The notes under the pieces: generated by a model
What the model saw: the letters and a program-made list of their open reading frames with translations, nothing else
Database searches by the model: none
What the model was told of the DNA's origin: nothing
IMG/VR virus record: IMGVR_UViG_3300031227_000018
Location: 1 to 64,000 of that record
From: a virus
Direction: 5' to 3' (one strand)
DNA length: 64,000 bases
Translations under genes and position numbers: made by a program
In this document: piece after piece, positions 8,391 to 9,018 of the stretch
How the letters are laid out: each line of letters starts with the position of its first letter
Numbering within the stretch: position 1 is the first letter of the stretch

Positions 8391-8999
8391 GTGAATAGCA
8401 TCAAGTCACATTGCCCAATCTTGATAAGAAATAAACTCCCTAATACAATTTGTCCTTTCGCTTTAAACTCTATCCGTAGAGCTCGCGGTGAGAATATTGT
8501 CAAATCTTTCTATTATGATATAGAGGTTTTAGAAAGGGATTGTTGTGATTGGTATATTTTAGATGAAGAATCATGTCATTGTTTCTGGAAGTTTTGGTCA
8601 AACCCTGATAATGTAAGGGAATATACGTTAGAGGAAATAGCAGCTTTAACATGTGTTACAACAGCAACGGTGTATAATATAGAGCAGAAGGCATTAGCGA
8701 AAATTGCATTAGTTTATATTAACAATGTCGATGATTTAGATTTTAAGATTGAAAACATACAAGAGTTGAAGAAGGAGTTTGAGAAGAGGTGTAGGAAGAT
8801 TAAGGAAGTTGATGAGGAGATGTATGAGACTGCAACAGTAATAAGAATTAAGGCTTATCAAAAGGGGTTTTCGTTTCACCCATCTTATTCAGAAGAACCT
8901 ACCTCAGATTTTCATTCAGTAATAAAGTCGACTCCGTTCATTCCCCAAAAACAGATGAAATTACCGATATCTTTAATGTTTGATTTTGTTAAAAATTAG
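8391..8999 (+). CDS. Cys-rich protein with a sigma-70 region 4.2 HTH; candidate late transcription factor
   Basis: EYTLEEIAALTCVTTATVYNIEQKALAKI resembles sigma70 [25 protein letters not shown]; no region 2 recognised. Confidence 0.7.
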   Translation: MNSIKSHCPILIRNKLPNTICPFALNSIRRARGENIVKSFYYDIEVLERDCCDWYILDEESCHCFWKFWSNPDNVREYTLEEIAALTCVTTATVYNIEQKALAKIALVYINNVDDLDFKIENIQELKKEFEKRCRKIKEVDEEMYETATVIRIKAYQKGFSFHPSYSEEPTSDFHSVIKSTPFIPQKQMKLPISLMFDFVKN

Positions 9000-9018
9000 T
9001 TAGCAAAATAAGTATACT
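8990..9018 (+). promoter_or_regulatory. putative late promoter TAAAAA-N17-TATACT
   Basis: Member of a fixed-spacing motif family; ATG 8 nt downstream. Confidence 0.7.

Follow-up and report, generated by a model that had tools for sequence, protein, structure and literature searches.

The genome of an uncultured phage was found to encode a 202-aa protein, in which a sigma-70 region-4.2-like HTH follows a Cys-rich N-terminus, together with a sharply defined class of promoters (class L), in which a canonical -10 element is paired at fixed spacing with a non-canonical -35 element. In our reading, which we put just short of an even chance, the protein could be a late-gene transcription factor that supplies recognition at the -35 position to the host polymerase. 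Its HTH, of the sigma-region-4 type and stabilised in a compact fold by four conserved cysteines that probably form a zinc or iron-sulfur site, would recognise TAAAAAT, placed exactly where sigma region 4 would read -35, and the host RNA polymerase with its primary sigma would read the canonical TATAnT -10. With TAAAAAT read by the protein and the -10 by host sigma, the protein would provide recognition of the -35, for which these promoters cannot rely on host sigma. In the sub-clade to which this phage belongs, a disordered linker appears to end in a clamp-binding-like peptide, through which late transcription may be coupled to DNA replication, as happens in T4 (gp33/gp55-gp45) and Mu (C-DnaN). 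We hypothesise that the protein might also displace region 4 of the host sigma.

The control of late genes is understood only for a few model phages. One complete genome here offers a simple, testable set, consisting of one small sigma-4-like protein and one sharply defined promoter class whose -35 is re-specified, and no further sigma domain was recognised in it. If the protein does read the -35, its family would represent natural 'swap-in' -35 readers with varied recognition helices, which would be useful for studies of sigma modularity and for orthogonal promoter design.

The IMG/VR record of the phage comprises 109,218 bp with direct terminal repeats, and its completeness was estimated by CheckV at 100%; the window analysed here is the first 64 kb of it, and positions refer to the window unless given as genome positions. 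Tail sheath and baseplate genes mark the phage as a myovirus (Table 1). Judged by the major head protein, which is about 30% identical to its counterparts in SPO1-like Bacillus phages, it is a distant relative of the SPO1-like myoviruses. PHROG scans revealed genes for a DnaE-type polymerase, DnaB-like helicase, primase, clamp loader, UvsX-like recombinase, SbcCD, SSB, GroEL, large terminase and portal. The GC content is about 37%, and genes use Shine-Dalgarno sites. Up to about 62.8 kb of the window, nearly all genes lie on the + strand and the GC skew is strongly positive (0.14-0.41), dropping to about 0 at the start of a minus-strand block. No prophage copy was found in a scan of genome contigs, and megablast of the region gave no match.

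Table 1. Positions of the features discussed, numbered from the first letter of the window.
Feature	Position	Strand	Remarks
AT-rich region upstream of the 202-aa ORF	8234-8390	+	157 nt
Cys4 + sigma-4.2-like HTH protein with long helix and C-terminal tail	8391-8999	+	ORF, 202 aa, GTG start
N-terminal domain, residues 1-112, family-conserved	8391-8726	+	C8, C21, C52, C64 plus HTH
Sigma-70 region-4.2-like HTH, residues 75-105	8613-8705	+	recognition helix TTATVYNIEQKA
Long single helix, residues 120-157	8748-8861	+	only in longer family members
Conserved C-terminal peptide PFIPQKQMKLPISLMFDF	8934-8987	+	resembles beta-clamp-binding motif Q-[ML]-x-L-x-hydrophobic
Class L copy 1, TAAAAAT-N16-TATACT	8990-9018	+	-10 ends 8 nt before ATG at 9027
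Prohead protease, S78-like N-terminus + charged scaffold-like region	9224-11419	+	phrog_1028, E 3e-25
Class L copy	12565-12593	+	
Class L copy	20227-20255	+	
Class L copy	22649-22677	+	
Class L copy	34263-34291	+	
Class L copy	34573-34601	+	upstream of 249-aa gene + major head protein
Major head protein gene	35440-36909		
Class L copy	41670-41698	+	-10 ends 6 nt before ATG
Tail sheath gene	43046-45529		myovirus marker, with baseplate genes
Class L variant TAAAAGT	60145-60173	+	

Domain make-up of the 202-aa protein and its family

The GTG start of the ORF is backed by the N-termini of its homologues; no Shine-Dalgarno sequence was seen before it, and the AT-rich region upstream holds no clear promoter of its own, at best a degenerate class-L-like stretch (8306-8335). 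The N-terminus had been described as Cys-rich from the motifs HCP, ICP, CCD and CHC, all of which are there; in family alignments the only cysteines conserved family-wide are C8, C21, C52 and C64, spaced C-x12-C-x30-C-x11-C, with C52 and C64 invariant. The N-terminal domain is probably a metal-stabilised fold, and its AlphaFold model is one compact unit with a mean pLDDT of 83 (above 90 for residues 50-110). A WhiB-like identity was considered and dropped, as the Cys spacing misfits the Wbl pattern and the HTH is sigma-like, not sigma-binding.

A HMMER search over 1.8 billion representatives revealed only 24 relatives at E ≤ 1e-3. They share a domain of about 110 residues with the four conserved cysteines and the HTH, and most of them, 96-145 aa long, consist of this N-terminal domain alone, without an oligomerisation region. 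No match was obtained by tblastn of the 202-aa ORF and three other family members against 50,697 GenBank phage records, and no experimental study of the family was found in a literature search. By these searches, the Cys-HTH family, newly noted here, appears to be small and confined to metagenomic phages, without a cultured member.

The preliminary description had assigned to the protein a sigma-70 region 4 without a region 2. Concerning region 4, the sigma-4.2-like HTH is real, but the matches lie below curated thresholds and extend over about 30-40 residues. The Pfam model Sigma70_r4 matches residues 75-105 at E 0.0034 with 17.3 bits, against a cut-off of 24.1, and reaches 19.5 bits at the same ORF in a six-frame search of the genome, also under the cut-off of 24.1; the NCBIfam sigma70 superfamily model gives 19 bits against a threshold of 42.9. 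The ORF is also matched by phrog_351 ('sigma factor') at E 1.7e-4. The family profile retrieved crystal chains of SigA region 4 from PDB at E about 2e-3, and in a PDB search with the single sequence all 14 of 14 rows were primary-sigma region 4, with a best E of 0.13. In the alignment of the segment NVREYTLEEIAALTCVTTATVYNIEQKALAKI to Taq SigA, the scaffold residues RE-TLEE, VT and IE-KAL-K are retained, and TTATVYN replaces TRERIRQ, so that the -35-contacting RERIRQ becomes TATVYN, in agreement with the change of the recognition helix noticed earlier. This helix, moreover, varies more than any other part of the family alignment, which is what diversifying DNA specificity would lead one to expect. 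As to region 2, the Pfam search of the ORF gave no match, which bears out its absence from the protein. Judged by these matches, which agree with one another but are weak, the protein falls outside the formal sigma-70 family, with its region 4 below threshold and no region 2; it does bear a sigma-4.2-type reading head.

Structure comparisons gave a similar result. In the whole-protein fold searches the long helix dominated and only generic coiled-coil rows were returned; therefore the N-terminal domain was refolded alone. Residues 76-117 align to HTHs of the sigma-4/LuxR type by VIA (Z 2-2.5, rmsd 1-2 A, 36-42 residues), and the Foldseek rows are mostly SigA region 4, those rows standing at E >1. 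No known fold matched residues 1-75 in the searches with the N-terminal domain. Its matches in BFVD are family members, one of them auto-named 'sigma-70 region 4', and its look-alikes in the ESM Atlas are small viral proteins that likewise carry this automatic name.

These likenesses bear on the possibility of a hybrid, or appropriated, sigma, in which the sigma-4-like domain would dock on the beta-flap tip, taking the place of host sigma region 4, and the holoenzyme would be composed of host region 2 and a phage 'region 4'. The HTH resembles region 4.2 of primary sigmas specifically, including the REYTLEE and IE-KAL-K scaffold residues, and the preceding segment ESCHCFWKFW can be aligned by eye to the 4.1 helix; occupation of the flap has a precedent in T4 gp33 (PMC2988020). 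However, the structural match ends at the HTH and does not take in the whole sigma-4 domain, and no AsiA-like remodeller was identified. We consider a hybrid sigma unlikely.

Class L promoters and the search for other sigma factors

The motif TAAAAA-N16-18-TATANT, a wider form of the TAAAAA-N17-TATANT of the preliminary description, occurs in 8 copies against 0.71 expected, a number reached in none of 100 shuffles. The narrower class L, TAAAAAT-N16-TATAnT, is present in seven exact copies, where 0.13 are expected in the whole genome and 0.048 in intergenic DNA; in the test confined to the intergenic DNA, which is 69% AT, none of 1000 shuffles reached seven. All seven lie on the + strand ahead of virion (structural) genes. 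Counted from TAAAAA, the spacer is 17 nt in each of them, and the other spacers between 12 and 23 nt give 0-1 copies. As had been stated, the first copy overlaps the 3' end of the 202-aa ORF, including its last codons and stop codon. Besides the TAAAAGT variant in the window, two more variants with one mismatch lie outside it (genome 96054 and 107807). Class L is real and forms a promoter class of its own, in which a non-canonical -35 stands at fixed spacing from a canonical -10. Candidate promoters of host type were found before the minus-strand block at 62.8-68 kb (TTGGCA-N16-TAAAAT and TTAACA-N17-GATAAT); the host, therefore, probably uses a normal -35, from which class L is distinct.

The distance of 17 bp to a canonical -10 matches the geometry of a -35 held by sigma and thus speaks for the hybrid sigma discussed above, but an activator bound at -35 would give identical spacing. 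An ordinary activator overlapping the -35, or a partner of an undetected sigma-2-like protein, would fit the data equally well.

At three of the class L promoters (41670-41707, 8990-9029 and 34263-34304) the -10 is separated from the ATG by only 6-10 nt without a Shine-Dalgarno sequence, which implies leaderless or near-leaderless late mRNAs; for the promoter at 41670 the sequence suggests a leaderless mRNA. About 45 nt past the first class L promoter, a weak terminator-like hairpin (9063-9080) is located inside a non-conserved 66-aa ORF, and the 200 nt ahead of the protease gene may be a leader, not a gene. The direct repeat TTACCTAAAAA occurs twice, 23 nt apart, at 46100-46150, downstream of a GC-rich terminator and upstream of the gene at 46194; no TATAnT accompanies it, and it could represent a variant regulatory site. 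Outside the window, a second element resembling a promoter, AAAATAGTTTTTTATTTTT, was found as a 17-19-mer in eight near-identical, orientation-specific copies (genome 66840(-), 68132(-), 68147, 70270, 78249, 85296, 99438 and 105578). Each copy is oriented like the replication or early/middle gene that it precedes and lies 20-55 nt ahead of the start of that gene; the element lacks a -35/-10 layout.

In six frames of the complete genome, the 202-aa ORF contains the sole region-4-like stretch; no Sigma70_r2 was detected at E ≤ 10 and no r4_2, in line with the proposal of a region-4 protein that stands alone. Nor was a beta homologue of a multisubunit RNA polymerase found in six frames of the complete genome. 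The search for a T7-type RNA polymerase gave no match, but its control also matched nothing, which makes it uninformative. There was no sigma among the PHROG matches of the approximately 70 ORFs scanned, and phmmer revealed no homologues of SPO1 gp33 or gp34 in the phage genome. The lack of another sigma favours the hybrid sigma as well.

The protein could also be half of a split sigma, in the manner of T4 gp55/gp33 among others, the other half being a small phage protein, undetected so far, that supplies region 2 and replaces the host sigma altogether. RsoA, gp55 and similar region-2 partners are small proteins of divergent sequence, and dozens of ORFs of this phage, many of them small, carry no annotation, so that a divergent partner could escape these searches. 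Split sigmas are documented elsewhere (PMC2988020; bioRxiv 10.64898/2026.10.01.756105). Against such a partner stand the canonical TATAAT-type -10, readable by the host primary sigma, the missing region-2 signal in six frames, and the absence of any conserved neighbour gene except the protease; we regard a split sigma as highly improbable. The 66-aa ORF (9027-9227) was tried as the region-2 partner and rejected: it adjoins the gene in no relative (it is absent from the related loci G001, L007, L015 and L021) and has no informative match.

Gene neighbourhood in relatives and the C-terminal tail

The Cys-HTH gene stands immediately ahead of the gene for the prohead protease in seven loci (the window, G001, L007, L015, L019, L020 and L021), and L018 also fits after a frame correction by eye; L017 differs, the gene preceding there a homologue of the other protease-like gene. 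It thus lies directly upstream of morphogenetic genes, as do the genes of regulators of the RinA/ArpU type. This conserved position, newly noted here, is the strongest new evidence of the analysis. G001 is syntenic with the genome of the window phage across the whole virion module. In G001, L007 and L021, the genes upstream of the Cys-HTH gene are non-structural (ribonucleotide reductase, PAPS-reductase-like, helicase), and the gene stands at the border between these and the virion module. In L017-L020 it is found inside the head module, after the portal gene, which also fits a head-associated role. The protease of the window phage has 731 aa, including about 500 highly charged low-complexity residues; its homologues in the relatives have 267-466 aa. 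In L018 (6060-6330) and L016 (6117-6340), the frame of the Cys-HTH homologue differs from that of the upstream ORF picked by a simple ORF caller, perhaps due to a frameshift, an alternative start or a sequencing error.

In L007, the Cys-HTH gene is preceded by a strong terminator and then by TTGATT-N17-TATAAT, and in L021 by TTTACA-N16-TATAAT. These host-type promoters suggest that the gene is transcribed by the unmodified host polymerase, which fits a regulator produced ahead of its targets; a host-type promoter of its own in two relatives, as read from their sequences, is another feature newly noted here. The gap to the protease gene in the relatives is 64-92 nt. A lambda Q-type antiterminator was dropped as a candidate because there are about ten dispersed promoter copies and the leaders in the relatives are this short.

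The neighbourhood likewise bears on a role in the head module, as a small-terminase-like protein or a packaged or ejected DNA-binding protein, co-expressed with the prohead protease or processed by it. Protease adjacency in seven loci and the position after the portal gene in L017-L020 fit such a role, and the N-terminal HTH, central long helix and flexible C-terminal tail of the long family members recall small-terminase architecture. However, the 202-aa ORF has no terminase-small-subunit match in PHROG or Pfam, and another ORF (genome 77314-77832) matches phrog_800, terminase small subunit; the gene lies about 20 kb from the genes of the large terminase (genome 94133-96046) and portal; most family members lack an oligomerisation region; and the host-type promoters in L007 and L021, together with the upstream terminator, indicate separate, earlier expression. 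We assign very little probability to a head protein.

Regulation other than the activation of class L was also considered, the protein acting as a repressor, as a factor for host shut-off that would sit on the flap as a sigma-4 decoy, or as the reader of AAAATAGTTTTTTATTTTT. This element is found at the head of eight early/middle transcription units and must likewise have a reader, and T4 gp33 alone represses basal transcription (PMC2988020). On the other hand, the gene that is conserved beside it is that of the head protease and not one for replication, and a class L copy directly abuts the Cys-HTH gene; such a role seems decidedly unlikely.

For the reading as a -35-recognising late factor, the recognition helix and the -35 should vary together among relatives. 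The recognition helix of G001, SVNNVSIAER, is different, and G001 has no TAAAAAT sites; it has instead four copies of TAT[AC]TA-N17-TATAAT against 0.3 expected, one of them in the 3' end of its own Cys-HTH gene, which matches the prediction. L015 has the same recognition helix as G001, yet its spacing is 18-19, and L007 and L021 gave one site each. The late promoters of the two or three relatives that allowed the comparison are heterogeneous, and their sites are too few and too varied to speak for co-variation.

The long helix of the protein is followed by a disordered linker (pLDDT <50, residues 160-192). The terminal peptide PF-x-P-Q-x-Q-[ML]-x-L is conserved in the five longest family members, with Q188 invariant in all five; most members, including those of G001 and L007, have no clamp-like tail. 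The bacterial beta-clamp-binding motif is QL[SD]LF or QLxLxh, which the terminal peptide of the long members presumably fits. A conserved clamp-binding-like peptide behind a disordered linker, newly noted in these five members, recalls the layout of T4 gp33.

The phage itself encodes a clamp of the DnaN type (PF02768, E 5e-9, genome 100738-101889) and a second, gp45/PCNA-like one (phrog_223, genome 70549-71250) that adjoins an RFC-like loader; two different sliding clamps in one phage are unusual. Directly upstream of the gp45-like clamp gene, a 69-aa Cys-rich ORF (genome 70343-70552; L002:6343-6552) contains a canonical beta-clamp motif, QLNLF, at a distance of ten residues from the C-terminus (QLNLFEKEEVK).

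The complex of the tail with a dimer of the DnaN-type clamp was predicted with a score of 0.40, against 0.00 for the best of three controls, and passed a mark reached by 58 of the 80 solved complexes and 2 of the 110 mismatches, of which only 7 of the 80, and both mismatches, reached it at scores ≤0.60. Contact agreement between the runs was at least 59% and partner pLDDT at least 44. The prediction lends weak support to binding of the tail to the DnaN-type clamp; as solved clamp-peptide complexes exist, the pass may reflect memory.

If its parts are combined, the protein could be a sigma-4-derived, -35-reading subunit that sits on the host beta flap in place of host sigma region 4, its C-terminal peptide tethering it to a phage sliding clamp. 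We hold this full combination to be very unlikely. If it were true, late promoters would fire only on replicating DNA, and the protein, itself a reader of DNA, would link sigma region 4 evolutionarily with T4 gp33, the phage being a distant relative of SPO1-like phages with two different clamps.

Comparison with known systems

Several known systems share single features with the proposed late factor. First, in the split sigmas (SPO1 gp33/gp34, B. subtilis SigO-RsoA and Tn916 Sig7/Sig8), regions 2 and 4 reside on separate polypeptides, whereas no region-2 partner was detected in the window phage. Kinship to SPO1 gp33/gp34 was rejected, as they show no meaningful similarity to the Cys-HTH family: hhalign of the family against gp34 matched the HTH only (E 0.018, probability 2.6%), and against gp33 nothing.

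Second, RinA, which has limited similarity to sigma region 4, is encoded upstream of a morphogenetic cluster (PMC3152322, PMC3753634), and RinA, ArpU and LtrC are small activators encoded, like the 202-aa ORF, just before morphogenetic genes. No RinA/ArpU HMM matched the ORF at E ≤ 1 (NCBIfam) or E ≤ 10 (Pfam). Unlike RinA/ArpU, the family has a Cys4 N-terminal module, its gene adjoins the protease gene and not terS, and the promoters are many and dispersed, not one late operon promoter.

Third, with T4 AsiA/MotA the proposed system would share the division of labour in which host sigma region 2 reads the -10 and a phage protein reads a substitute upstream element. AsiA and MotA, however, are two proteins of unrelated fold, and the MotA box has its centre at -30; the proposal for the window phage involves just one protein, sigma-4-like, and an element at true -35 spacing.

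Fourth, Mu C is a late activator that works with the sigma-70 holoenzyme, uses DnaN and bears clamp-binding motifs (PMC12867686), a second precedent for clamp-assisted late transcription; it is a dimer of the Mor/C family, and its binding site is a dyad located from -30 to -55 (quoted in PMC3152322). Unlike the 202-aa protein, Mu C has neither a sigma-4-like sequence nor a Cys4 module.

Finally, T4 gp33 is a sigma-4 mimic and late co-activator with a C-terminal clamp epitope (PMC2988020). Both it and the 202-aa protein are small phage proteins, the latter proposed for the sigma-4 position, and both phages encode their own clamps. By layout alone, the likeness to gp33/gp55 extends to a folded polymerase-directed domain, an unstructured linker and a short hydrophobic C-terminal peptide, a clamp epitope in gp33/gp55 and a putative one here (PMC2988020). 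However, gp33 is not a reader of DNA, and a -35 is missing from the late promoters of T4, whereas the window phage has a sigma-4.2-type HTH and a conserved element at the -35 position; its tail looks like a bacterial beta-clamp motif, and no gp55-like partner was found. Should the clamp tail be real, this phage would join T4 and Mu as a third, independent example of late transcription coupled to replication.
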